Below, one piece after another: positions 4,530 to 64,000 of a stretch of 64,000 nucleotides of DNA (positions are counted from its first letter, which is position 1; each line of letters starts with the position of its first letter). This stretch comes from an uncultured beta proteobacterium (GTDB lineage: Bacteria; Pseudomonadota; Gammaproteobacteria; Burkholderiales; Casimicrobiaceae). The DNA is taken from assembly GCA_963742965.1 (NCBI GenBank), contig CAVUOC010000006.1:5967-69966 (forward strand), read 5' to 3'. The position numbers and the translations under genes were made by a program. Below the pieces are notes generated by a model that searched no databases, was not told the DNA's origin, and saw only the letters and a list, made by a program, of their open reading frames with translations.

Positions 4530-6258
4530 TCATTCGTTGGTGCAGGCTTCGACTTCCTCGAGCGAGGTGATGCCCTGCTTGACCTTGAGCAAGCCCGACT
4601 GGCGCAGGTCGCGCACGCCTTCCTTCTTTGCCTGCTCGGCGATGTCGAAGGCGGTGCCGTTGCGCATGATGAGCTGGCGCATCTCGTCGCTGATCGGCAT
4701 CACCTGGTAGATGCCGACGCGGCCCTTGTAACCGGTTCCCTTGCAGTGATCGCAGCCCTTGGGGCCGAAGGGCTGCCAGCTGCCGTCGAGATCTTCGTCG
4801 GTGAACCCGGCGCGCAGCAACGCTTCCGGCGGGATGTCCTCGGGCTTCTTGCACTGCGTGCACAGGCGTCGCGCCAGCCGCTGCGCGGTGATGAGCAGCA
4901 CCGAGGAGGCCACGTTGAAGGGCGCGACCCCCATGTTGAGCAGCCGCAGCAGCGTGTTCGGCGCGTCGTTCGTGTGCAGCGTCGAGAGCACGAGGTGGCC
5001 GGTTTGCGCCGCCTTGATCGCGATTTCGGCGGTCTCGAGGTCGCGAATTTCGCCGACCATGATGATGTCCGGGTCCTGGCGCAGGAACGCTCGAAGCGCG
5101 ACGGCGAACGTGAGCCCCGCCTTCTCGTTCATGTTGACCTGGTTGACCCCGGCGAGCTGGATTTCCGCCGGGATCCTCGGCCGTCGAGATGTTGACGCCC
5201 GGCTGGTTCAGGATGTTGAGGCACGTGTAGAGCGACACCGTCTTGCCGCTGCCCGTGGGGCCCGTGACGAGGATCATCCCGTACGGGCGCCCGATCGCGT
5301 GCATCATCGATTCCTGCTGCTCGGGCTCGTAGCCGAGCGCCTCGATGCCGAGCTTGATGCCCGACGAGTCGAGGATACGCATCACGATCTTCTCGCCGAA
5401 GAGCGTCGGCAGCGTGCTCACGCGGAAGTCGATTGCCTTGGTCTTCGAGAGGACGATCTTCATCCGGCCGTCCTGCGGGACGCGCTTCTCCGAGATGTCG
5501 AGCTTGGAGATCACCTTGATCCGCGACGCGATCTTGTCCTTGATCACGAGCGGAGGCTGCGCCATCTCCATCAGGATGCCGTCCAGCCGGTAGCGGACGC
5601 GGTAGAACTTCTCGTAGGGCTCGAAGTGGATGTCCGAGACGCCGGCGGCGATCGCGTCCATCAGGATCTTCTGCAGGTAGCGGACGACCGGCGCGTCCTC
5701 GACCTCGGAGCTCTCCTCGTCGCCCGCGGCCTGGCCGGTATCGGACTCCTGGAGGTCGACCTCGAGGTCCTCCATCGAGGCGCCGGCCTCCTTCAGCAGG
5801 GCGCCGGAGGCTTCGACGAGCTTGTGGATCGTCGCGGCGAGCTTGTCGTTCTCGACGACGACGGGCTCGACGACCAGATTGGTCTTGAACCGGATCTCCT
5901 CGAGGCCCTGCAGATTCGCGGGATCGGAGGTGGCGACGAACAGGCGGTTGCCGCGCTTATGCAGCGGCAAAACGTGCCGCGTCTGGGCAATCTTGAGGTC
6001 GATCAGGTCCTTCTGCAGCAGGTCGGTGTCGAACCCGGCCAGATCGAGCAGCGGGACCCCGAACGCCCGCGATGCGAAGATCGCGAGCTGGTTCGGCGTG
6101 ATCCGCTTGCCCGCGAGCACGTGATCGACGAAGCTCACGCCGGCCTGCTGCGCCTGCGTCTGCAGCGTCTCGGCCTCGTACTCCGTCATCAGCCCGTGCT
6201 GGGCGAGCGCGCGCGCGAGTCCGCTGATGTTCCTCGTCGCTGCGGCGTGCGTTGCCAT
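4530..6258 (-). pseudogene. pilB: type IV pilus assembly ATPase PilB, one frame break
   Basis: N-terminal 363 aa are in ORF 4513..6258 (..[33 protein letters not shown]). The C-terminal 200 aa are in ORF 4530..5132 ([43 protein letters not shown]). Deleting one base near 5169 (GATCCCGGCGGAAATC) gives ..[22 protein letters not shown].. Confidence 0.85.
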
Positions 6259-6394
6259 GGGCTAGAAGGTTCGAATACGGTTCGCGGGTTTTGGGCGCCG
6301 AATCATCCCGAACGGTTAAGCAATTCCTGTGCCGTGTCGGCTACAACTGCGTGACGATCGTCCCCGGCGCGGCGTTATTCCGCTTGCATATAAC

Positions 6395-7711
6395 TTAGCC
6401 GGTCGATGATGCCTGCCCCTCATGGCTTTGTAAAGAAGCCGACGGCACGCGCCCCACGGGGGCGAGCAGTTTTACGACTTTTACGCCACGGTCCTGAGTT
6501 TGCAGGATTTCGATCATCTGCCCGGAAACCTCGACATGCGTGCCAGCCGAGGGGATTTCCCCCAGGTGATCGACGATCAGGCCGTTGAGCGTCTTCGGGC
6601 CGTCGATGGGGAATTTCGTGCCGAGCTTGCGATTGAGCGTTCGCAGCGGCGCGAGCCCGTCGACCACCACGCTGCCGTCGGCGGCGCGGCGGTAGGTTTC
6701 GGTGCCGCCGGGCGCCTGCGTCGTGAAATCCCCGATGATCTCCTCGATGATGTCCTCGATCGTCACGAGGCCTTTGAGCTCGCCATACTCGTCGACGACG
6801 AGACCCAGCCGCTCGCGGTCGGTCTGGAACTGCTGGAGCTGGACGAGCAGCGGCGTCCCGGCGGGGACGAAATAGGCGGGACGCAGGATCGAGCGCAGCG
6901 CTTCCGCCTCGATGTCGCCGCCCCGCTGCAGATGCACGACCTGCTTCAGGTGGATCACGCCGACGATGTTGTCGAGCTCGTGCTCGTAGACGGGCAATCG
7001 CGTGTGGTACGAGGTCGCGAGCTGCTGCGCGACCTGCGAGGGCTTCGCCGCAAGGTCGAGCGCATGGATCTGGTTGCGCGGCGTCATCACGTCGTCGACG
7101 CTCACCGCCTCGAGGTCGAGAAGGTTGGCGAGCATCGCGCGGTGCTTGCCGCGGAAGTACTGGCCTTCGAGGACGAGCGAGCGCAGCTCCTCCTGCGTGA
7201 GCGTCGTCTCCGGATCGCCGACCTGCTGCAGGCGCAACATCCGCAGCAGCCCCTGGACGAACAGGTTGACGAACCAGACGATCGGCTTCGCCACCTGCAG
7301 CATCGGCGCCAGGATGTAGGCGACGACGGGCGCGATCCGATCGGCATGGGCCGCGCCGACGACCTTGGGCGTGATCTCGGAGAAGACGAGCAGGCCGAAG
7401 GAAATGGCGACCGTGCCGAGCGCCAGCGCGAGCTCTCCTTCGCCGAACAGGCGCTTCGTGATGACCGCCGTCAGCGTCGCCGCGCCGGCCGCGACGAGCG
7501 TGTTGCCGAGCAGGATCACGCCGAGCAGCGCGTCGGTCTTGCCGAGCAGCGCCACCGCGAGCTTGGCGCCGCGCTCGCCGCGCTGCGCGCGGTGCTTGAG
7601 CCGGTAGCGGTTGACCGCCATCATCGCCGTCTCGGCGATCGAGAAGAAGCCCGAGGTCGCGAGGCACACGGCGAGCGCTGCGCCGAGCGTGCTTAACGGG
7701 ACGTCGTCCAT
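6395..7711 (-). CDS. HlyC/CorC family transporter (DUF21 membrane domain, CBS pair, CorC_HlyC domain)
   Basis: Part of ORF 6395..8548 from MDDVPLSTLGAALAV.. (438 aa). The ATG overlaps the upstream stop (TGATG). Matches the E. coli ypjD-yfjD neighbourhood next to ffh. Confidence 0.85.
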   Translation of the reverse strand: MDDVPLSTLGAALAVCLATSGFFSIAETAMMAVNRYRLKHRAQRGERGAKLAVALLGKTDALLGVILLGNTLVAAGAATLTAVITKRLFGEGELALALGTVAISFGLLVFSEITPKVVGAAHADRIAPVVAYILAPMLQVAKPIVWFVNLFVQGLLRMLRLQQVGDPETTLTQEELRSLVLEGQYFRGKHRAMLANLLDLEAVSVDDVMTPRNQIHALDLAAKPSQVAQQLATSYHTRLPVYEHELDNIVGVIHLKQVVHLQRGGDIEAEALRSILRPAYFVPAGTPLLVQLQQFQTDRERLGLVVDEYGELKGLVTIEDIIEEIIGDFTTQAPGGTETYRRAADGSVVVDGLAPLRTLNRKLGTKFPIDGPKTLNGLIVDHLGEIPSAGTHVEVSGQMIEILQTQDRGVKVVKLLAPVGRVPSASLQSHEGQASSTG

Positions 7712-54175: not shown

Positions 54176-54694
54176 ATGAAGGAGCACGCGATGTATTCCA
54201 GGATTGCGAACCTGTGTTCGACCACCGCGCTCGCGGCGGTGCTGACTTTTACCGCCGCGGGCGTCGCGAGCGCGCAGAACGCCGTGCAGCCGGTGCCCGA
54301 CAGCGGCATCGTGCGCGTCAAGAGCGCCTATTCGGTGCCCGAAACCGTCGCGCGGCTCAAGGCGGATGTCGCGAGCAAGGGCATCCGGTTCTTCGACGAG
54401 ATCGACCAGGCGAAGCTCGCGGCCGACGCGGGCGTCAAGCTGCGGCCCTCGACGTTGCTGGTCTTCGGCAACCCGCCGCTCGGCACGCTCTTCATCCGCT
54501 CCAATCCGCTGGCCGCGCTCGACTGGCCGGTGCGTCTTCTCGTGCTCGAGGACGAGAACGGACAGGTCTGGGCCGCGTATACCGATTTTTCCTACATCGC
54601 GAAGCGGCACGCGATCGACGGCGCCGATGCCGAAGCGTTCAAGACCGCCTCGGGCGTGATCGCGTCGATCACCTCGAGCGTCAAGGGCCAGTGA
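54176..54694 (+). CDS. DUF302 domain-containing periplasmic protein
   Basis: ORF 54176..54694: signal peptide ..ALAAVLTFTAAGVASAQ, then ..PSTLLVFGNPPLGTLFI..LDWPVRLLVLEDENGQVWAAYTDFSYIAKRH. ATG 54191 is an alternative start. Confidence 0.8.
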   Translation: MKEHAMYSRIANLCSTTALAAVLTFTAAGVASAQNAVQPVPDSGIVRVKSAYSVPETVARLKADVASKGIRFFDEIDQAKLAADAGVKLRPSTLLVFGNPPLGTLFIRSNPLAALDWPVRLLVLEDENGQVWAAYTDFSYIAKRHAIDGADAEAFKTASGVIASITSSVKGQ

Positions 54695-54721: not shown

Positions 54722-55561
54722 CTACTTGCGGATATCGGCCTCGAGGAGCGCGCGGAGCTCCTTCGTCACCTTCGGCATCACGCCGAACCACTTCTCGAAG
54801 CCGAAGCCGGCCTGGTGCAGCAGCATGCCGAGGCCGTCGACGATCCGATGGCCGCGCGCGCGCGCCTGCGCGAGCAGCGGCGTCTCGAGCGGCACGTAGA
54901 CGACGTCGTAGACCACCGCGCTGCTGCTTCAACGGAGCAAGGTCGATCTCGAGCGGCGGCTTTCCGACCATGCCGAGCGACGTGCAGTTGACGAGAAGAT
55001 CGGCGCTCGGGAGCAACGCGGGCAGCGCGTCGAAGCCGTGACCGCTGACGTGCGGGCCGAAATGCTCGGCGAGCGCGCGGGCGCGCTCGATCGTGCGGTT
55101 GGCGAGCGACGACGTCGGCGCCGCGCTCGAGCAACGCGTACGCCGCCGAGCGCGCCGCGCCGCCCGCGCCCAGTATCACGACACGGCATCCGGCAACGTC
55201 CCACCCGGGCGCGAGCTCGTCGAGGTTCGCGATGAAGCCGTGCGGATCGGAATTGCTGCCCATGAGCCGCGTCGCCTTCGTACCAGACCGTGTTGACCGC
55301 GCCGACCGCTTCGGCGATGCCGTCGCGCTGGGCGACGAGCCGGTACGCGGCTTCCTTGTGCGGGACGGTGATGTTGCCGCCGACGTAGCCGTTGTCGGCG
55401 AGATGCGTGAAGAAGTCGGCGAACGCCTCGGGCGTTCGGTCGACGAGCTCGTAGCGGCCCGCGATGCCCAGCTGCGCGAGCCAGTAGCCGTGAATCATCG
55501 GCGAGCGCGAATGCGAGATCGGGTGGCCCATCACGCAGGCGCGCCGTACGGCACTGTTCAC
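54722..55561 (-). pseudogene. aroE: shikimate dehydrogenase, 3 frame breaks (each one extra base)
   Basis: GTG 55561 after AAAGG. ..[42 protein letters not shown] / [36 protein letters not shown] / [24 protein letters not shown].. / [24 protein letters not shown]... Frames of ORFs 54929, 54778, 54696 and 54722. Confidence 0.8.
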
Positions 55562-55645
55562 GATGCGACCTTTCGTGCTTTCATGTTCGGCGGCTGAGGC
55601 GGCCCCGGTGCCTTGCGCCGCCGGAATCGAATCGGGAATTCTAGC

Positions 55646-56901
55646 TTGAAAGTTCTGTTTCGCGCCCTCGTGGTGCTTCATCGTCGCGCTGCCGTTTCTG
55701 GCGATCGCGGCGGTGCTGATGTGCTTCCAGGACCGGCCGCTCGTCTCGACGACCGTGCAGCTCACTCCGCACGACATCGAGAAGGCGAAGCGCATCCTCG
55801 ACGCGCACGATCCGCGCAAAGCCGGTCGCGACGGACTGCAAACGGTGGCGATCGACGAGCGCGACCTCGAGACGACGCTGAACTACCTCGCGAGCCGCAT
55901 CGGACACGGCTCGGTGCGCGTCGTGCTGCGTCCGGGAGCGGCGTCGGCTGCAGGGGACCGTCGAGCTGCCGCGCAGTCCGATCGGCCGCTACGTGAACAT
56001 CGATGCCGCGTTGCACGAAACCGGCGCGCTGCCGCGTTTCGACCACCTGAAGATCGGCAGCGTCCCGGTGCCGGGCGTGCTCGCCGACTACCTGCTGCGC
56101 GAGGGCCTTCGACGGGCCGTCGAGACGGATCGCGGCGGTCTCGCCGCCGACGTCGTCAAGGACGTGAAGGTCGGCGACGGGCGCCTCACCGTGACGTATC
56201 AATGGAACGACGCCGTCGCCGAGCGCGCGCGCGCGGTGCTGGTCGCTCCGGAGGATCAGGCGCGGCTGCGCGTCTATCACGACCGTCTGGTCGAGGTCGT
56301 CGCGCAGGCGCCGAACAAGGTCTCGCTGGCGACGCTGATGCCGCCGCTGTTCCTCCTCGCGCTCGATCGCGGGGCGACCGGCGACATCGTCCGCGAGACG
56401 CGCGCCGCGATCGTCGTGCTGGCGTTCTACTCGAACGGGAAGGGACTCGGCGAGATCGTATCGGCGGCGAGGCAATGGCCGCAGCCGGCGCGGCGCACGG
56501 TGACGCTCGCCGGCCGCGACGATTTCCCCAAGCACTTCCTGATTTCCGCGGCCATCGCGGCCCAGGCCGGAACGCCGCTCGCCGATGCGATCGGCGTCTA
56601 CAAGGAGATCGACGACTCGCGCGGCGGCAGCGGGTTTTCGTTCAACGACATCGGCGCCGATCGCGCGGGCACGCGTTTCGGCGAGGTGGCATCGCAGTCG
56701 CCGGAGCGCGCGCGCAAGCTCGCGCGCGCCGTCGCCGCCGGCGTGAAAGAGTCCGACTTCATGCCCGACGTTTCGGATCTGCCGGAGTTCATGCAGGAAG
56801 CCGAGTTCAAGCGGCGCTACGGCGGCGTCGGCGGCGCGGGTTACAACAAGATGATGGCGACGATCGAGGCGCGCGTCGCGTCGCGCCCGCTGCTCCGATA
56901 G
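55646..56901 (+). pseudogene. membrane-anchored protein of unknown function, 2 frame breaks; start uncertain
   Basis: Proposed TTG 55646 (LKVLFRALVVL) / FIVALPFLAIAAVLMCFQDRPLVSTTVQLTPHDIEKAKRILD..VRVVLRPGAA / LQGTVELPRSPIGRYVNIDAALHE.. then ORF 55993..56901 (302 aa, ..GGSGFSFNDIGADRAGTRFGEVA..). I recognise no family. Confidence 0.4.
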
Positions 56902-56971: not shown

Positions 56972-57457
<486 letters not shown>

Positions 57458-57474: not shown

Positions 57475-59692
57475 ATGACAACGACCTCGCGCGGCAAGAC
57501 GACGAATCTCTCGCGCCGCAGGTTCCTGGTGAGCTCGGCCGCCGCAGGCGGCGGGCTCGCGCTCGGCTTTCAGCTTCCGTTCGCGGTGGCCGAAGCCGCG
57601 ACGCAGACCGCCGCGCCGGTTCCGGAGATCAATGCGTGGGTTGTCGTGAAGCCCGACAGCACCTGCGTGATCCGCATCGCGCGCTCGGAGATGGGGCAGG
57701 GGACGCTCACCGGTCTCGCCCAGCTCGTCGCCGAGGAGCTCGAGTGCGACTGGAAGAAGGTGACGCACCGAGTCGCCGACGCCGGGCGAGAACCTCGCGC
57801 GCAAACGCGTGTGGGGCGAGATGGGAACCGGCGGAAGCCGCGGGATCCGGACGTCCGAAGACTACGTTCGCCGCGGCGGCGCCGCGGCGCGGATGATGCT
57901 CTTGCAGGCGGCCGCCAACGAATGGAAAGTGCCGGTCGCCGAGCTCACGGTGTCCAACGGCGTCATCACGCACGCCGCGTCGAAGCGCACGACGACGTAC
58001 GGCAAGGTCGCTGCGGCCGCGGCGAAGCTTCCGCCGCCCGACGAGAAGAGCATCAAGCTCAAGGATCCGAAGGAGTGGAAGATCGCCGGCAAGCCGCTGC
58101 AGCGGCTCGACACGGCGCCGAAGCTCGACGGCAGCCTCGTCTACGCGATCGACGTCAAGCTGCCCGGAATGAAGTGCGCGGCGATCAAGGCGAGCCCCGT
58201 TTTCGGCGGCAAGCTCGTGAGCTTCGACGAAAGCAAGATCGCCGGAAGGGCCGGCGCGCCGCGCGCCGTCAAGGTGAACGACCGCACGGTGGCCGTCGTC
58301 GCCGACACGTGGTGGCGCGCGAAGTCCGCGCTCGACGCGCTGCCGATCGTCTGGGACGAAGGTCCTTCGGCATCGCAGACGAGCGCGACGATCGCCGAGC
58401 ATTTGAAGGAGGGCCTCACCGCGCCCGGCGCGTATGCGTATCGGCAGGAAGGCGACGCGCTGAAGGCGATCGACGGCGCTGCGAAGAAAGTCGAAGCCGT
58501 CTACAGCACGCCGTTCCTCGCGCACGCGACGATGGAGCCGATGAACTGCACGGCGAAGGTCACGGCGGACCGCGCCGAGGTGTGGGTGCCGACGCAAAAC
58601 GGCGAGGCGGCGCTCGCAGTGCTGTCCGAGGAGTCCGGCCTGCCGCTCGAGAAGTGCGAGGTCTACAAGCACGTGCTCGGCGGCGGATTCGGCCGCCGCG
58701 GCAGCACGCAGGATTACGTGCGCCAGGCGGCTGCGATCGCCAAGCAGTTCCCCGGCGTTCCGATCAAGATGATCTGGAGCCGCGAAGAGGACATGACGCA
58801 CGACTTCTACCGGCCGATCTCGCAGTGCCGGCTTGCCGCCGGCCTCGACGAGTCGGGCAAGCTCGTCGGCATGCACGTGCGCGTGTCGGGCCAGTCGATC
58901 AACGCGTTCAACAATTCGCCGCTCGCGAAGGACGGCAAGGACGAGCGGCAGATGCAGGGCTATTACGAGAAGCCCGGCGATGCGCAGCTGGGCTACACGT
59001 TCCCGAATCTGCTGATCGAGTACGCGATGCGCAACACGCACGTCCCCGTCGGGCCGTGGCGCGGCGTCAACACGAACCAGAACGCCGTCTACATGGAATG
59101 CTTCATCGACGAGGTGGCGAAGGCCGCGGGCGCGGATTCCGTCGAGTTCCGCCGGGCTCTGATGCAGAAGCATCCGAAGCACCTTGCGGTGCTCAACGCG
59201 GCGGCGGCGAAGGCCGATTGGGGCAAGCCGCTCCCCGCAGGCGTGCATCGCGGCGTCGCGCAGTTCATGGGTTACGGCAGCTATTCGGCGGCCGTCGCCG
59301 AGGTTTCGGTCAGCGCCGACGGCAAGGTCAAGGTCCATCGAATGGTGCTCGCGCTCGATTGCGGCCACGCGGTCAATCCCGCGCAGATCGCAGCGCAGGT
59401 CGAAGGATCGGTTGCATACGGGCTGAGCGCCGCGTTCTTCGGCGAATGCACGGTCGACAAGGGCCGCATCGTCGAGAGCAATTTCGACACCTACGAGATC
59501 CTGCGCCTCGTCGACATGCCGAAGGTCGAGACGGTGATCGTGCCGTCGTACGACTTCTGGGGCGGGGTCGGCGAGCCGACGATCTGCGTGGTCACGCCGG
59601 CGGTGCTCAACGCCATCTTCGCTGCGACCGGAAAACCCGTGCGCACGCTGCCGCTGAAGAGCCAGAAGATCGGGTTATCCGCGAAGGCATGA
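57475..59692 (+). pseudogene. molybdopterin-binding large subunit (IorB-like) with twin-arginine signal, one frame break
   Basis: ATG 57475 after GAGGAG. MTTTSRGKTTNLSRRRFLVSSAAAGGGLALG..IRIARSEMGQGTLTGLAQLVAEELECDWKKVTH (frame of 57097..) then ESPTPGENLARKRVWGEMGTGGSRGIRTS.. and ORF 57809..59692 (627 aa). One extra base near 57772. Confidence 0.85.
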
Positions 59693-60204
59693 GTCCGGCG
59701 AGCCATGGCGCCAGAGGCCGCTGCGTTCGAGCCCGCGCTCGAACGCGGCGTCGCTCGAAGATCGCGGGCATCGTTGCGAGCGGCCTTGTGGCGGCCGCGC
59801 ACGTCGCCGCGGCCGCCGATCCGGTGCCCGATGCGCTCGTCCCCTATCGCGTCGTCGCCGACGGAATACCGGAGCCGCTCGCAACGGGTGACGCCGCGCG
59901 CGGGAAGGCGCTGCTCGCTGCGCGCGATCCCGCGAACTGCGTGCTGTGCCACTCGGTGCCGGACGCCTCGATCCCGTTTGCGGGCAACGTCGGACCGCCG
60001 CTCGCCGGCGTCGGAGCGCGGCTCTCGACGGCGCAGCTGCGCTTGCGCGTCGTCGACAACATGCGCGTCAACTCGCAGACGATCATGCCGAGCTATTACA
60101 AGGTCGCCGGCCTCGAGCGCGTCGCCACTGCGTTCCGCGGCAAGCCGATCCTGACGGCGCCGCAGGTCGAAGACGTCGTCGCCTATCTCGGGACGCTGCG
60201 ATGA
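59689..60204 (+). CDS. soxX: monohaem c-type cytochrome SoxX
   Basis: ATG 59689 overlaps the iorB-like stop (ATGA). Signal-like ..IAGIVASGLVAAAHVAAAA; one CxxCH (CVLCH). ..STAQLRLRVVDNMRVNSQTIMPSYYKV..ILTAPQVEDVVAYLGTLR matches the SoxX C-terminal pattern as I remember it. Confidence 0.8.
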   Translation: MSPASHGARGRCVRARARTRRRSKIAGIVASGLVAAAHVAAAADPVPDALVPYRVVADGIPEPLATGDAARGKALLAARDPANCVLCHSVPDASIPFAGNVGPPLAGVGARLSTAQLRLRVVDNMRVNSQTIMPSYYKVAGLERVATAFRGKPILTAPQVEDVVAYLGTLR

Positions 60205-60672
60205 ACAGCGACGCGCTGCACCGCCTCGCGCGGCGCCGTGCGCTCCAGGCAGGCGGCGCGCTGTTGCTCGCGCCGTGGCTGCCTGCGCTGCGCCGCCGAC
60301 CGCGACGTCGCCGACGTTCCCGCGCTCGCGGCGTTCCTCGCCGGCCGCGTGCCGCGCTGGGAGCGCATCCGGCTCGATCTGCCGCGCCTCGCCGACAACG
60401 GTCAGGCGGTGCCGATGAAGATCGTCGTCGACGGGCCGTTCGCGCCGGGACCCTACGTCAAGGTGATCCGGTTGTTTTCGCAGCGCAATCCGGTCCCGGA
60501 AATGGCGACGTTCGAGTTTCCGGTCGCAGTCGAGCGCATCGAGGTCGAATCGCGGATCCGCCTTGCAGGCACGCAGCGCATCGTCGCGGTCGCGACGATG
60601 AGCGACGAGGCGCTCTACGCGGCAGGGGCCGACGTCGTCGTGACGATCGACGCCTGCATGGACGGCACCTGA
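60201..60672 (+). pseudogene. SoxY-like sulfur-carrier family protein with non-canonical C-terminus (..VTIDACMDGT); frame break in the leader
   Basis: ATG 60201 overlaps the soxX stop (ATGA). Tat-like leader MNSDALHRLARRRALQAGGALLLAPWLPAL (frame of 59946..) then AADRDVADVPALAAFLAG..PRLADNGQAVPMKIVVDG..IRLAGTQRIVAVATMSDEALYAAGADVVVTIDACMDGT (ORF 60238..60672). One extra base near 60290. Immediately followed by soxZ. Confidence 0.7.
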
Positions 60673-60678
60673 GAGCCC

Positions 60679-60999
60679 ATGCCCGACGCACGCATCAATA
60701 TTCCTGCGGAAGTCCCGCGCGGAAAGCCGTTCGAGGTGCGCATCCTGATACGGCACCCGATGGAAACGGGCTACCGCACCGATGACGGCGGCAAGCAGAT
60801 CGCGCGCAACGTGCTCACCACGCTCACGTGCCGCTACAACGGCGAGGCCGTGTTCTCTGCCCGGTTGAGCTCGGGAATCGCCGCGAATCCTTACCTGCGA
60901 TTCTTCGTCACCGCTCGCGAATCGGGCCCGCTCGCGTTCGAATGGGTCGACGACCGCGGGGTTCGAGGGGATGAGCGCGCGGCGGTGACTGTCGTCTGA
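60679..60999 (+). CDS. soxZ: thiosulfate-oxidation carrier complex protein SoxZ
   Basis: ORF 60679..60999, 106 aa: ..GKPFEVRILIRHPMETGYR..IARNVLTTLTCRYNGEAVFSARLSSGIAANPYLRFF.. Confidence 0.85.
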   Translation: MPDARINIPAEVPRGKPFEVRILIRHPMETGYRTDDGGKQIARNVLTTLTCRYNGEAVFSARLSSGIAANPYLRFFVTARESGPLAFEWVDDRGVRGDERAAVTVV

Positions 61000-61775
61000 T
61001 GTGGCGTTTGCTGGCGGCCGTCGTCGCGTGCTGCGCGGCCAGCGTTTCGGCGCAGCAGCGAGCGGTGCCGCTCTCCGCGTTACGCTCCGGCATAACGTTC
61101 GCCGGCGCCGACGTGCGGGCGATGCAGGCGGACGAGCTGGCAAATCCCGGCTTGCTGTGGGTCGAGCGCGGCGAGAAGCTGTGGAACGCCGCGGCGGGAA
61201 CGTCGGGCAAGAGCTGTGCGTCGTGCCACGGCGCGGCGCCGTCGTCGATGCACGGCGTCGCCGCCCATTATCCGAAGTTCGACGCCGATGCGGGCGCCGT
61301 GCTCGATCTCGATGCGCGCATCGTCGACTGCCGCACTCGACGCCAGCAGGCACCGCCATTGGCACGCGAGTCGGACGACCTGCTCGCGCTCACTGCGTAC
61401 GTCGCGTATCAGTCGCGCGGCGTGCCGCTCGCGGTCGCCATCGACGGCCCGGCGCGCGCCGCGTTCGAGCGTGGCCGCGAGTTCTACGCGCAGCGGCACG
61501 GGCAGATGAATCTCGGCTGCACGCATTGCCACGACCAGAGCTGGGGCAAGCGCCTTCTCGGCGAGACGATCAGCCAGGGACACGGGACGGGATTTCCGGC
61601 CTATCGTCTCGAGTGGCAGGGCCTGGGATCGCTGCAGCGAAGGCTCAGGGCGTGCCTCTTCGGCATTCGCGCCGAGATGCCGCCGGCGGGTGCGCCGGAG
61701 TTGACCGACCTCGAGCTCTACCTCGCATGGCGCGCGCAGGGGCTGCCGATCGAGGCGCCCGGCGTGCGCCGCTAG
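60999..61775 (+). CDS. soxA: dihaem c-type cytochrome SoxA
   Basis: ORF 60999..61775; the ATG overlaps the soxZ stop (TGATG). Signal peptide MWRLLAAVVACCAASVSAQQ; CASCH and CTHCH; ..GFPAYRLEWQGLGSLQRRLRACLFGIRAE.. contains the conserved distal Cys. Confidence 0.85.
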   Translation: MWRLLAAVVACCAASVSAQQRAVPLSALRSGITFAGADVRAMQADELANPGLLWVERGEKLWNAAAGTSGKSCASCHGAAPSSMHGVAAHYPKFDADAGAVLDLDARIVDCRTRRQQAPPLARESDDLLALTAYVAYQSRGVPLAVAIDGPARAAFERGREFYAQRHGQMNLGCTHCHDQSWGKRLLGETISQGHGTGFPAYRLEWQGLGSLQRRLRACLFGIRAEMPPAGAPELTDLELYLAWRAQGLPIEAPGVRR

Positions 61776-61778
61776 GCG

Positions 61779-62846
61779 TCACAGCTTACCGGCGTAATCG
61801 CGATTCGACTGCTTGAGCCGCGCGTCGTTGCCGAAATACGCGTGCTTCGACATGTCGGCCGAGTAGCGGCTCGCCGGCGGCGTGCGGCCGAGCGCCTCGG
61901 CGATGCTGCGGATGTGATGCGGCATCGCTCCGCAACAGAGCCCGAAGTAGCGCACGCCGAGCGCGAGCGCTTCCTTGGCGAAGAGCGCGATCTCGAAGCG
62001 GTTGCACGTGAAGGGCTCGAGCGCGACCGGAAACGGCATGTCGCCCGGTATGCACGAGCAGTTGCCGTCGCGCAACGACTGAAACGTCGGCTCGCGGTCG
62101 TGCGTGCGAAAAGGCACGGGCAATGCAGCAACCGGAACGTCCACCGCGCGAACGATCTTCGCGATCAATGGCAGCATCGTGCGCGGACCGCGGATGCAGT
62201 TGAGACCGACGACATCGGCGCCGGCGTCGGCGAGCATCCTGCAGCAATCCTCGGGCGTGAGGCCGTCGCGCGTGAGCGGCTCGCGGTGGATCGTCATCGT
62301 CACCGCCGCCCGCAACCCGGCGGCCTTGATGATGTCGAGCGCCATTTTCGCTTCCGAGCCATACGAGAACGTCTCGGCGATCACGTAGTCGACGCCTGCT
62401 TCGGCGGCCCAGCCGACCTGCTCCTCGAACATCGCGCGGCTCGCGTCCTTGCTCGAGGTGTCGGCCGGGTCGTACACGTTCGTGTTGCAGATATCGCCGG
62501 CGAAGAGCGCACCCGTTTCCCCGGCGACCTTCTTCGCGATCGAGAGCGCGTGGCGGTTCATCGCCTCGAGCTGGTGCTCGCGCCCGATGATGCGCAGCTT
62601 CTCGCGGTGCGCGTAATAGGTGAACGCTTCGACGACGTCCGATCCGGCGTGCACGAAATCGCGGTGCACCTGCTCGACGACGCCGGGGTGGTCGAGCACC
62701 GCTTCCGGAACGAACGCCCCGGCCTGGACGTAGCCGCGGCGCTCGAGCTCGAACAGGTAACCCTCGGCGCAGATGATCGGACCCTCGGCGAGACGCTCGA
62801 CGAGTCCCTTCCGCGAGTTGCGATCGGACGCCAATGCATTCTCCAT
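61779..62846 (-). CDS. homocysteine S-methyltransferase family protein (betaine-homocysteine methyltransferase-like)
   Basis: ORF 61779..62861. ATG 62846 is preferred over GTG 62861, which would overlap the upstream gene. ..GPIICAEGYLFELERRGY..GSDVVEAFTYYA..VGLNC..GLCCGAMPHHIR (Zn-binding Cys pattern). Confidence 0.75.
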   Translation of the reverse strand: MENALASDRNSRKGLVERLAEGPIICAEGYLFELERRGYVQAGAFVPEAVLDHPGVVEQVHRDFVHAGSDVVEAFTYYAHREKLRIIGREHQLEAMNRHALSIAKKVAGETGALFAGDICNTNVYDPADTSSKDASRAMFEEQVGWAAEAGVDYVIAETFSYGSEAKMALDIIKAAGLRAAVTMTIHREPLTRDGLTPEDCCRMLADAGADVVGLNCIRGPRTMLPLIAKIVRAVDVPVAALPVPFRTHDREPTFQSLRDGNCSCIPGDMPFPVALEPFTCNRFEIALFAKEALALGVRYFGLCCGAMPHHIRSIAEALGRTPPASRYSADMSKHAYFGNDARLKQSNRDYAGKL

Positions 62847-62851
62847 TGCGC

Positions 62852-64000
62852 TCACACCCACGGACAGTGGCTGTTGCTCGCGCCGAACGTCTTGCCGTTG
62901 GCGAAGCGCGACAAGGCGAACGGATCGAGCTCGGCGACGCGGTCCCCGCGGCCGATGAGCCTTGCGACGAGCTTGCCCACGCCGGTCATCTTGAAGCCGT
63001 GATTGCTGTCGGCGATCATGTAGACGTTGGGCGCGATCCAGTCGAAGACCGGCACGTTGTCGGGGGTGAACGCGCCGATGCCGCCGTTGCGCCGCTCGCG
63101 GAAATTCTTGCGGCTGCCCTCGAAGCGGCCCATCAGCTGACCCATCGCCGCCGTCAGATAGTCGGCGAATTCCGGCTCCGCCTGATACTCGTCGTTTTCG
63201 TGGCCGTAAGGATCCGTCACCGCCTTCGGACCGATCCTGATCGGGATCGTGCCGCCCTGCACGCCTGGCCGGTCCATCCGCTCGGCCCCGTTCTTCCAGT
63301 ACACGTACAGGTGATCGGCGAGCATCCTGTCGCTCGCTTTATCGATGACCGGCGTGTTCATCAGCTCGACGTGCAGCACCGGCGGGTCGAGGTCGTCGAC
63401 GGTGCGATACGGCTTGTCGACATACACTTCGCCTTCCAGCAGGCGCCAGTACGTCCACATGTCCTTGCGGATCGTCGCGCCGTCGGCGTAGCGGGCATCG
63501 ATCTCCATCGGCTTGCCGAGCATCGCCCAGTGCTTCGGCGTCCACGCGCCCAGCCCGAGCACGACCACCTCGCAGCCGATGTCGCCGCGATTGGTGCGCA
63601 CGCGCGATACGACGTCGCCGGTCCTGTCGTAGCCGAGCACTTCCACGCCCGGGAGGATCCGCACCCCGTGATCGCGGCACTTCTGCGCGAGGCCCGCAAC
63701 GGCTTGCCTCGTGCCCGCGTACCCGCTCACCTTTTCGTGCAGCACGACGTCGATGCCGTCGGTCTTGAAGTCGGGCCAGATCTTTTTCAGGAACTTCTTC
63801 GCTTCGGTGCCCTGAAAGAGCTCCGACGGGTAGCCGGCCCGGGCCTGGCTCGCTTGCAGCCTCTCGTAGTCGGACGCCTGGTTCGCTTCGCCCGCCGAAA
63901 CGTAGCCGACCTGCTGGAAGCCGAGCGCGACCGGATCGCTCGTCCAGACGTCGACCGAATGACGCAGGATCGCGTGGATCGGCTCTGTCATGTACAGGTT
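62852..64000 (-). CDS. FAD-dependent oxidoreductase (DAO / sarcosine oxidase beta-like), 5' end outside the window
   Basis: ORF 62852..63991 lacks the N-terminal GxGxxG dinucleotide fold, so the gene must start beyond 64000. ..VVVLGLGAWTP..MIADSNHGFKMTGVGKLVA.. Confidence 0.65.
   Translation of the reverse strand, partial: NLYMTEPIHAILRHSVDVWTSDPVALGFQQVGYVSAGEANQASDYERLQASQARAGYPSELFQGTEAKKFLKKIWPDFKTDGIDVVLHEKVSGYAGTRQAVAGLAQKCRDHGVRILPGVEVLGYDRTGDVVSRVRTNRGDIGCEVVVLGLGAWTPKHWAMLGKPMEIDARYADGATIRKDMWTYWRLLEGEVYVDKPYRTVDDLDPPVLHVELMNTPVIDKASDRMLADHLYVYWKNGAERMDRPGVQGGTIPIRIGPKAVTDPYGHENDEYQAEPEFADYLTAAMGQLMGRFEGSRKNFRERRNGGIGAFTPDNVPVFDWIAPNVYMIADSNHGFKMTGVGKLVARLIGRGDRVAELDPFALSRFANGKTFGASNSHCPWV

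Follow-up and report, generated by a model that had tools for sequence, protein, structure and literature searches.

A SoxY-like protein with a non-canonical cysteine arm, encoded beside IorAB-type molybdenum hydroxylases in soil bacteria

Characterised SoxY proteins end in an invariant Gly-Gly-Cys-Gly(-Gly) arm, and the cysteine of this arm carries the sulfur intermediates. The present study concerns a SoxY-like protein with a different arm, here referred to as SoxY', which is encoded in a 64,000-nucleotide stretch of DNA from an uncultured beta proteobacterium of the Casimicrobiaceae (contig CAVUOC010000006.1, positions 5,967 to 69,966; the whole stretch is referred to as the window). SoxY' shares with canonical SoxY (Paracoccus pantotrophus, 2OX5; TIGR04488) the fold (template modelling (TM) score 0.78-0.81), the leader for twin-arginine translocation (Tat), the ADNG..VP motif, the position of the cargo cysteine on a flexible C-terminal arm, the partner SoxZ, whose adjoining gene encodes no signal peptide, and SoxXA as the loader. 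Unlike canonical SoxY it has no GGCG(G) but four residues past the cysteine, including a hydrophobic and an acidic one, and the molybdenum enzyme accompanying it is of the xanthine-oxidase family instead of the sulfite-oxidase family.

The arm type has been flagged before by the name of the NCBI family TIGR04487, 'SoxY-related AACIE arm protein', and a similar module was seen in one organism in 2013. SoxY' and the AACIE-arm family have a common arm logic (Ala/Ser, Ala/Gly, Cys, aliphatic, Asp/Glu), a Tat leader, a soxZ gene following and the operon partners iorA, iorB, soxX, soxZ and soxA. They differ in the letters of the arm (D/A-A/G-C-M/L-D-G-T/S in the clade of the window, A-A-C-L/I/V-E in the AACIE family), in their hosts (uncultured Burkholderiales/Casimicrobiaceae against mainly Alphaproteobacteria) and in the flavocytochrome c genes, which are present in the alphaproteobacterial modules but lacking in the module of the window. 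The members of TIGR04487 stand in the context iorA-iorB-(fccAB)-soxX-soxY'-soxZ-soxA, an observation of this analysis and not a published criterion, and the window shows the same order minus fccAB.

The organism of 2013 is Starkeya novella, whose second sox cluster (Snov_1975-1982) comprises soxX2Y2Z2A2F2 and a xanthine-oxidase-family enzyme; on glucose, methanol and thiosulfate it was expressed at a very low level, neither SoxAX2 nor SoxYZ2 was detected in the proteome, the function was left open by the authors and the arm of SoxY2 was not discussed (Kappler et al. 2013, PMC3797975). [quoted passage not shown] The cluster of S. novella differs by a SoxF-like flavocytochrome c and by its gene order, and it is likened to the module here by its published description, the arm of SoxY2 not being compared. 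No Starkeya entry was present among the 120 matches listed of at least 8000 scored homologues. A full-text literature search ('AACIE', SoxY with isoquinoline oxidoreductase, iorB with soxA) found no paper on this arm, and a broader search yielded nothing beyond the S. novella paper and surveys that pass over the arm. In one study SoxY sequences without 'GGC' were dropped as poor quality before the phylogeny (Sudo et al. 2024, PMC11237559).

TIGR04557, the quinoprotein-associated SoxYZ-like carrier, is likewise a periplasmic protein derived from SoxY/SoxZ and found together with a periplasmic dehydrogenase that is not a Sox enzyme. Unlike SoxY' it is a fused SoxY-SoxZ polypeptide, occurring with pyrroloquinoline quinone (PQQ) alcohol dehydrogenases, rhodanese and SoxH-like hydrolases; in the window SoxY' and SoxZ are encoded by two genes, a PQQ dehydrogenase is missing from the neighbourhood and SoxY' scores 48.9 bits, missing the cutoff of 140. 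As a functional analogy the XdhC/MOCOS sulfuration systems can be mentioned, where a persulfide on a protein supplies the terminal Mo=S ligand, but these are cytoplasmic and unrelated to SoxY' in sequence, and we know of no periplasmic equivalent.

Translation of the window showed that the SoxY-like open reading frame (ORF) ends in ...VVVTIDACMDGT followed by a stop, the body frame, which is open from 60238 to the TGA at 60670-60672, translating to ...AAGADVVVTIDACMDGT and stop, and a C-terminal stretch of it reading ...ALYAAGADVVVTIDACMDGT and stop. The codon of the arm cysteine, Cys152, is TGC and encodes the fifth residue counted from the C-terminus. When all frames were translated between 60200 and 60700 no GGCG(G) end was present in the two other frames, and a six-frame translation of the whole window contained no GGCG(G)-stop and no GGCGG-type SoxY, on which grounds a hidden GGCGG end was rejected; a search for an indel restoring such an end likewise found none. 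Translating all frames thus confirmed the preliminary description in that the GGCG(G) arm is missing and that a cysteine stands five residues from the end. The span 60201-60672 given there does not form a single ORF but falls into two frames: the ATG at 60201 opens the twin-arginine leader MNSDALHRLARRRALQAGGALLLAPWLPAL, whose frame then decays into Arg/Pro-rich nonsense, and the SoxY body lies in the +1 frame. The leader (RRRALQ) is joined to the body of SoxY' once a 1-nt insertion is taken out.

The position of this insertion is given by a public contig of 2339 nt (L001), which matches the window at 99.2% identity, with 18 mismatches over 2340 nt and a single indel, the additional C that the window has at 60291 (ctgCgccgcc in the window, ctggccgcc in the contig). 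There soxY' is intact and encodes a protein of 156 aa (P0001) with the same C-terminus. In the window a 1-nt insertion near 57766 likewise breaks the frame of iorB, and aroE, an unrelated housekeeping gene on the minus strand (54722-55819), is spread across three frames in the same 6 kb, while the codon-position GC bias remains high in the frame-shifted segments. That three genes have indels inside 6 kb and that a nearly identical copy is intact points to consensus errors in a long-read assembly, and the frameshift at 60291 is most likely a sequencing or assembly error. With two of the six module genes out of frame, the locus could instead be a pseudogene cluster decaying in this organism, in which both frameshifts are real; this appears improbable, since the split of aroE and the retained codon bias speak for consensus errors and since L001, an independent short-read assembly, keeps soxY' intact and elsewhere shows nothing but substitutions. 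The argument that the many overlapping ORFs prove many frameshifts was dropped, as stop-to-stop ORFs overlap naturally at 68% GC, and the three verified cases were kept. The window resembles an unpolished long-read consensus, so its other ORF calls need caution.

SoxY' reaches 84.7 bits for the Pfam family PF13501 (SoxY), the cutoff of which is 28.4. With a family alignment of 30 sequences as input, AlphaFold modelled a confident beta-sandwich (predicted local distance difference test (pLDDT) 87-95 over residues ~50-148), the last strand of which stops at Thr148, and the following eight-residue tail, IDACMDGT, has no secondary structure in the model (pLDDT ~52). A Foldseek comparison with the PDB gave SoxY chains of Paracoccus, Chlorobium and Thermus in each of the first 16 places (target-normalised TM 0.74-0.81), with 2ox5, 2oxg, 2nnc and 4uwq at the top (TM 0.78-0.81). 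The SoxY-like body, the Tat leader and the soxZ directly after it, all pointed out in the preliminary description, are hereby supported. In the HMMER alignment to Paracoccus SoxY the residues VVVTIDAC are placed over VKVTIGGC, making Cys152 the positional equivalent of the canonical cargo cysteine.

The best NCBIfam match of SoxY' is TIGR04487, the family suggested in the preliminary description, but with 103.9 bits for the body in the window and 108.7 bits for P0001 it stays below the cutoff of 172, while true members score 178-217 bits (196 for the Reyranella massiliensis protein, which ends VTLAACLEEAT). The cutoff of canonical SoxY, TIGR04488 (125 bits), is missed as well, with 79.3 and 80.0 bits for the window body and P0001, respectively. 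In a neighbour-joining tree of SoxY bodies without the arm, crude and without support values, the GGC-arm proteins group together and the clade of the window forms a branch of its own among several Ala/Ser-Ala-Cys-arm clades, apart from the AACIE clade. The arm of the window, Asp-Ala-Cys-Met-Asp, follows the same pattern of small, small, Cys, hydrophobic and acid as the AACIE motif, Ala-Ala-Cys-(Ile/Leu/Val)-Glu, in other letters. A score below 172 and a separate branch in the body tree place the protein, by the cutoff of the family itself, as a sister of the AACIE-arm family and not as the member that it had been thought it might be. The clade of the window is a distinct betaproteobacterial one, below both SoxY cutoffs, with a C[ML]DG[TS] arm and without flavocytochrome c genes.

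To follow the arm among homologues a search of 5.8 billion proteins was performed, yielding 399 matches to SoxY', and the best 120 of these (about 60-97% identity) were examined. All 120 end in xxC[ML][DE]xx, with AGCMD (51), DACMD (35), AACLD (12) and AGCLD (10) as the most common letters, and a GGCG(G) arm was not found among them, the nearest being one reading GGCMD. The residue at Cys+2 is Asp or Glu in every one of the 120 while Cys-2 varies (D/A/S/T/G), so that of the acidic residues said to flank the cysteine the one following it holds and the one preceding it does not. In the 30-sequence alignment (mean column identity 71%) C152, D154 and the twin arginines are invariant, and the terminal cysteine is thereby kept family-wide. 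Across relatives 0 to ~8 residues follow the acid, a variable tail that often puts the cysteine away from the tip of the arm. The 150 nearest representatives at 50% identity (from 1.84 billion proteins) include 100 with small-small-Cys-x-Asp/Glu and 26 with GGC, and the sister AACIE-type family, with AACLE, AACVE, AACTE and AACIE arms, counts at least 8000 clusters at 90% identity, most of them of soil origin; a SoxY without GGCGG is thus no rare oddity. The alignments show a conserved pattern of small, small, Cys, hydrophobic, Asp/Glu and variable tail, and by this pattern the non-canonical end is not a chance feature.

Two homologues in the clade of the window (P0021 and P0086) bear the NCBI name 'thiosulfate oxidation carrier protein SoxY', both ending in the same non-GGC arm type, while the window protein and its clade members P0001 and P0090 pass the cutoff of neither TIGR04488 nor TIGR04487. 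The name likely overstates what is known for this clade. Through such routine naming, and through filtering on GGC, metagenomic inventories of sulfur oxidation may miscount the arm variants.

The gene neighbourhood was compared in 160 related loci, 80 from genomes and 80 from metagenomes, each lying within ~10 kb of soxY'. A scan with one genome per GTDB species gave 319 relatives, of which 80 loci were analysed using tblastn, the intact locus L003 supplying the six query proteins. The ~67 closest genome loci (about 50% identity or more) all belong to uncultured soil genomes of the Burkholderiales/Casimicrobiaceae, and relatives at 33-42% identity are found in Reyranella, Xanthobacteraceae, Azospirillum, Variovorax and Hylemonella, with AACLE-type arms. 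SoxX was found in 77 of the 78 genome loci with at least 600 nt upstream of soxY', SoxZ in 78 of all 80, SoxA in 73 of the 74 with at least 1.5 kb downstream and IorB in 55 of the 64 with at least 4 kb upstream. The gene iorA precedes iorB in 64/80 genome loci, and IorB is co-directional in 37 and divergent in 26, while ~8 loci are truly without IorAB inside 10 kb. All-against-all clustering of the flanking ORFs in the 80 genome loci revealed no further conserved neighbour beyond the six genes, be it a hydrolase, a regulator or a transporter, and no recurrent SoxB or SoxCD cluster. With tblastn, SoxB was found in 0/160 loci, and XdhC gave no match in the IorAB-bearing loci among the 80, its one weak match (27% identity) being in a locus without IorAB (L065).

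True TIGR04487 members in Reyranella, Neorhizobium, Methylobacterium and the contig L084 have the IorAB context too. In Neorhizobium galegae pNgVX and Methylobacterium sp. NMS14P the order is (2Fe-2S) protein, molybdopterin-binding protein, cytochrome c, FAD oxidoreductase, soxX, 'SoxY-related AACIE arm protein', soxZ and soxA; in Roseomonas marmotae iorAB-soxXYZA is followed by the cytochrome c and FAD genes, and in L084 the member is preceded by IorB and SoxX. For the FAD protein of Reyranella the match is 5n1t_A, the flavin subunit of a flavocytochrome c sulfide dehydrogenase (E 1e-140), and the presence of this dehydrogenase in the alphaproteobacterial modules ties the system to sulfur.

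The metagenome scan was seeded with five sequences of a third clade (arms ...ESACLD...) and gave the 80 further loci. In 32/80 soxX lies upstream, with IorB before soxX in at least 22 of those, while 24/80 show iorA-iorB-soxY'-soxZ without soxX or soxA (e.g. L116, 4333-7812), an architecture shared by L093 and L094. The IorB of the loci without SoxXA has a Tat signal and is 42-43% identical to the module IorB, thus belonging to another subfamily. In five of the 80 metagenome loci (L136, L137, L140, L146 and L150) the soxY'Z pair stands alone, without adjoining iorAB or soxXA, and SoxB and FccB were found in 0/80. As IorAB is kept in loci without soxXA, the constant partner of the arm type is IorAB and not SoxXA. 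The co-occurrence with an IorAB-type enzyme that had been proposed for checking was largely found but is not universal, given the ~8 genome and five metagenome loci lacking it. The idea of a different docking partner fits a context without SoxB in 160 loci, without recurrent SoxB/SoxCD in the 80 genome loci and with IorAB adjoining in most. Newly seen here is that the arm type pairs with periplasmic IorAB, with or without SoxXA, and that SoxB is never found nearby; the gene neighbourhoods show an arm type travelling with IorAB-type molybdenum hydroxylases that are predicted to be exported by Tat, and not with SoxB/SoxCD. A variant arm carrier beside a periplasmic molybdenum enzyme across hundreds of soil bacteria points to a widespread system, and cultured carriers are available in Starkeya (by published description), Neorhizobium, Methylobacterium, Reyranella and Roseomonas.

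In the SoxXA-less loci the arm reads VNESACLDGG, and a tail-anchored CoxG-like gene (coxG) is often located divergently just downstream. The stand-alone soxY'Z pairs have arms ending ...EAACTDGG or ...EAACTED, with Thr following the cysteine. In three betaproteobacterial loci with the divergent layout (L032, L034 and L040, ~5170-6430 on the minus strand) a homologue of the flavocytochrome c flavin subunit, 41-44% identical to that of Reyranella, is located directly after iorB; the sulfide dehydrogenase gene there tracks iorAB and not sox. In Neorhizobium galegae pNgVX, a finished plasmid, iorB matches in two frames (two high-scoring segment pairs, L085, 4755-6918) with no coding sequence in the gene table, and may be a genuine frameshift or a pseudogene.

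The distribution of the loci bears on the possibility that soxXY'ZA is a spare set, a duplicate core feeding SoxB/SoxCD elsewhere or having no function, with IorAB merely co-located or using SoxX/SoxA as a cytochrome c outlet. S. novella has a complete canonical sox cluster besides, and the second cluster was almost without expression, the authors suggesting no significance under the conditions tested (PMC3797975). A 2026 survey counted ~1000 'insulated' soxA/X/Y/Z paralogues outside recognised sox clusters, in genomes already having such clusters, and gave no function for them (PMC13500833), and the naming by NCBI of proteins in the clade of the window as plain SoxY also agrees with this explanation. 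It is nevertheless very improbable, as the synteny with IorAB extends across alpha- and betaproteobacteria, in both layouts and even in loci without soxXA, as the arm differs exactly at the residues contacting the canonical partners and these differences are conserved, and as the strong purifying conservation over the clusters of the sister family argues for a function. With SoxXA as a mere electron outlet the invariant cysteine would be unexplained. The comparison provides a testable handle on the long-standing question of what role duplicate sox genes have.

The nearest solved relative of IorB is 8gy3_C, deposited as an aldehyde dehydrogenase large subunit and matched over the full length (E 5.6e-70), and the GVGEP motif with the catalytic Glu is present in the IorB translation. 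This raises an explanation in which the carrier is an aldehyde thiol carrier: the thiolate of Cys152 would react with a periplasmic aldehyde, IorAB would oxidise the thiohemiacetal to a thioester and the Asp/Glu would aid its hydrolysis, as a periplasmic counterpart of glutathione-dependent formaldehyde/glyoxal detoxification. The iorAB-soxY'Z loci without SoxXA would then be self-sufficient, the invariant acid at Cys+2 would gain a role, and the SoxYZ-like family TIGR04557 is tied to periplasmic alcohol dehydrogenases, which produce aldehydes. We consider it improbable all the same, for it leaves without a role both SoxXA, present in most loci with an intact active site for sulfur chemistry, and the flavocytochrome c sulfide dehydrogenase, and molybdenum aldehyde oxidoreductases need no thiol cofactor.

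IorB was further compared with and without sox genes, using the Reyranella IorB in tblastn against 72,556 plasmids and chromids. This revealed a sharp identity gap, with one IorB subfamily at 56-65% and all others at or below 41.6%. The same subfamily occurs without a nearby sox gene in S. meliloti, S. medicae, S. fredii, Rhizobium etli, Rhizobium sp. 007, Agrobacterium tumefaciens and Methylosinus trichosporium OB3b, where a small class-I cytochrome c adjoins in 6/7 contexts and XdhC, with or without MocA, in 3/7. In the tree the sox-less IorBs are interleaved with the sox-linked ones, and an alignment of 46 sox-linked and six sox-less IorBs contains one separating column (Gly468 versus Ala/Thr). 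This column is trivial, sox-specific residues were therefore rejected and no docking adaptation is evident in IorB; from the interleaved tree and the single column it appears that the chemistry of IorAB is the same whether the carrier is there or not.

Of the 80 genome loci just one showed the small cytochrome c of the sox-less IorAB, and the proposal that SoxX is a homologue of this cytochrome was rejected for lack of BLASTP similarity. The SoxY-like match on the Methylosinus plasmid with the sox-less IorAB turned out to be an unrelated remnant of a canonical sox cluster with soxB, truncated by an insertion sequence (IS). Another SoxY arm, ending ...VATNGCL or ...ATNGCR and stop, was seen in clusters of four genes (soxY, soxZ, cytochrome c and flavocytochrome c flavin subunit) in S. 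meliloti pSymA (L091, 6995-9436) and Rhizobium sp. 007 (L104, 5971-8388), with no soxXA, soxB or iorAB nearby; these rhizobia carry a sox-less IorAB with cytochrome c elsewhere.

A natural first guess from the operon, which mirrors the Sox logic of loader, carrier and molybdenum enzyme, is an alternative Sox pathway in which SoxXA or flavocytochrome c loads SoxY' and IorAB replaces SoxCD, oxidising the bound sulfane and passing electrons to the haems of SoxX/SoxA, the product leaving without SoxB, e.g. when incoming sulfide displaces it as sulfite or thiosulfate. The flavocytochrome c sulfide dehydrogenase that forms part of the alphaproteobacterial modules and the co-variation of the arm with the loss of SoxB/SoxCD agree with this, and the small cytochrome c, so common in the sox-less contexts and nearly absent from the genome loci, may there be replaced by SoxXA. 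If true, it would mean a member of the xanthine-oxidase family acting on protein-bound sulfur, which would be new biochemistry. To our knowledge no enzyme of this family oxygenates sulfur. Moreover, no release hydrolase was found in the 160 loci, the same IorB subfamily works without sox genes and has essentially no sox-specific residues, a further IorB subfamily, distant from the first, has a carrier of this kind but no SoxXA, and the cluster of S. novella was not induced by thiosulfate, its SoxAX2 and SoxYZ2 being undetected (PMC3797975). Altogether such a pathway is rather unlikely, and the oxidation of carrier-bound sulfur as a substrate of IorAB seems less likely than a donation of sulfur to Mo=S.

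Any model has to account for an IorAB pairing that spans several SoxY' clades and two IorB subfamilies and for SoxXA and flavocytochrome c being optional, as well as for the missing release hydrolase, an IorB that is alike with and without sox genes, a cysteine off the tip of the arm and a cluster in S. novella that thiosulfate does not induce. That soxY' belongs to the module and that Cys152 has a carrier role is highly probable, and a direct functional partnership of SoxY' with IorAB is probable. The best explanation as a whole, to be held tentatively, is that SoxY' would be the cysteine-arm subunit of a periplasmic SoxY'Z carrier in a self-contained six-gene module, the arm of which serves IorAB. 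The SoxA of the window matches Rhodovulum SoxA (1h31) over the full length (E 1.9e-58), with both CxxCH motifs and the cysteine of RLRAC aligning, the latter being known as the haem ligand that bears the persulfide. As SoxXA keeps both haem motifs and this cysteine, we infer an oxidative loading of Cys152, in which SoxXA, by homology, probably couples an inorganic sulfur donor (sulfide or thiosulfate) onto the cysteine through an S-S bond. The loaded arm would then donate sulfane sulfur to the molybdenum centre of IorAB; that it serves IorAB is inferred and is the weakest step.

Members of the xanthine-oxidase family require Mo=S as a terminal ligand, protein persulfides (the MOCOS/ABA3 and XdhC-NifS systems) are the natural source of its sulfur, and desulfo xanthine oxidase is reactivated in vitro by sulfide. 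XdhC, which sulfurates and inserts the molybdenum cofactor, is a cytoplasmic factor and provides no repair once the enzyme has been exported by Tat. The persulfide on the arm might install or repair the terminal Mo=S outside the cytoplasm, after Tat export. Such a donation of sulfur to Mo=S is possible but far from assured, and its extension to AAC-x-Asp/Glu-arm SoxY'Z in general, as a periplasmic delivery of sulfur to the molybdenum cofactor with the persulfide formed by SoxXA or flavocytochrome c where present, is somewhat more doubtful still. If true, this too would be new biochemistry: it would be the first pathway to maintain a molybdoenzyme cofactor beyond the cytoplasm, and Sox proteins would have a use outside respiration. 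The probability not taken up by this donation, the alternative Sox pathway, the aldehyde carrier and the spare set goes to a model not yet conceived.

A service at the level of the cofactor is favoured by the occurrence of the same IorB subfamily without sox genes, interleaved in the tree and with one separating column, and what two IorB subfamilies with a shared carrier have in common is the cofactor. The absence of the release hydrolase SoxB from all 160 loci also favours it, and XdhC, adjoining in three of seven non-sox contexts and in no IorAB-bearing locus of the first 80, does so weakly. The lack of thiosulfate induction of the S. novella cluster points the same way (PMC3797975). The donation to Mo=S thus fits the IorAB pairing, the missing release hydrolase, the unchanged IorB and the missing thiosulfate induction, and it is strained by SoxXA and flavocytochrome c being optional, by a cysteine off the tip of the arm and by the lack of a periplasmic precedent.

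Several points weigh against the donation of sulfur to IorAB. Every step is proposed from sequence, structure prediction and analogy, and we know of no precedent for a periplasmic sulfuration of the molybdenum cofactor. Most periplasmic IorAB occur without such a carrier, which is therefore not generally required, and the SoxXA-less loci ('type C') encode no enzyme to load sulfane sulfur. With thiosulfate as donor SoxXA would give an S-thiosulfonate, from which exposure of a persulfide normally needs SoxB, absent from the loci. Between 2 and 10 residues lie beyond the cysteine, placing it off the arm tip, and it is hard to see how it would reach a molybdenum buried at the end of a funnel. The contrast in XdhC comes from seven loci that are not independent, and the presence of XdhC, SoxB and SoxCD was judged from the surroundings of the loci. 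Four to six accessory genes are many for a repair function. Finally, soxY' is frameshifted in the window, and its function in this organism hinges on the indel being an artefact.

The features of the module in the window are collected in Table 1. The overlapping stop and start codons from iorB through soxA, with a gap of 6 nt between soxY' and soxZ, suggest that the module iorA-iorB-soxX-soxY'-soxZ-soxA is translationally coupled, and all its parts are predicted to be periplasmic.

Table 1. Features of the six-gene module in the window, with positions counted from its first nucleotide.
Feature	Position	Strand	Characteristics and evidence
iorA, small subunit of the IorAB-type molybdenum hydroxylase, two [2Fe-2S] clusters	56972..57457	+	No signal peptide; Pfam Fer2_2 and Fer2; 83% identical to IorA of L003
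iorB, molybdopterin-binding large subunit	57475..59692	+	Tat signal (SRRRFLV); Pfam MoCoBD_1/2; 1-nt insertion near 57766, residues 1-98 at 57475-57765 and 99-739 at 57767-59689
soxX, monohaem cytochrome c	59689..60204	+	TIGR04485, 76.2 bits (cutoff 61); start overlaps iorB stop (ATGA)
soxY', 5' part with start and Tat leader	60201..60290	+	MNSDALHRLARRRALQAGGALLLAPWLPAL; R11 and R12 invariant in family alignment; start overlaps soxX stop (ATGA)
Extra C, shifting the soxY' frame	60291	+	Sole indel in the 2340-nt alignment to L001
soxY', body with Ig-like beta-sandwich, arm and stop	60292..60672	+	Pfam SoxY, 84.7 bits; AlphaFold; Foldseek
C-terminal arm I-D-A-C-M-D-G-T	60646..60669	+	Cys at 60655-60657, predicted cargo site; Asp at Cys+2, 60661-60663
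soxZ, carrier partner subunit	60679..60999	+	No signal peptide; TIGR04490, 81.8 bits (cutoff 76); Pfam SoxZ
soxA, dihaem cytochrome c with Cys-ligated active-site haem	60999..61775	+	TIGR04484, 240.7 bits (cutoff 110); start overlaps soxZ stop (TGATG)

Directly upstream of iorA an ORF of 302 aa with strong coding bias and no Pfam match is located at 55993-56901 (+); it was not seen at this place in L002 and L003. A secreted DUF302 protein (PF03625, 55 bits) is encoded at 54176-54694 (+), 2.3 kb upstream of iorA, and is not conserved beside the module in other loci; DUF302 genes are also found in canonical sox regions, e.g. by soxB and DsrE genes on the Methylosinus plasmid (L097). Downstream, and convergent on soxA, a member of the homocysteine S-methyltransferase family (61779-62861, minus strand) and a DAO-family FAD oxidoreductase (62852-63991, minus strand) overlap each other by 10 nt, and this gene pair is probably an unrelated methyl-amine or betaine-type operon.

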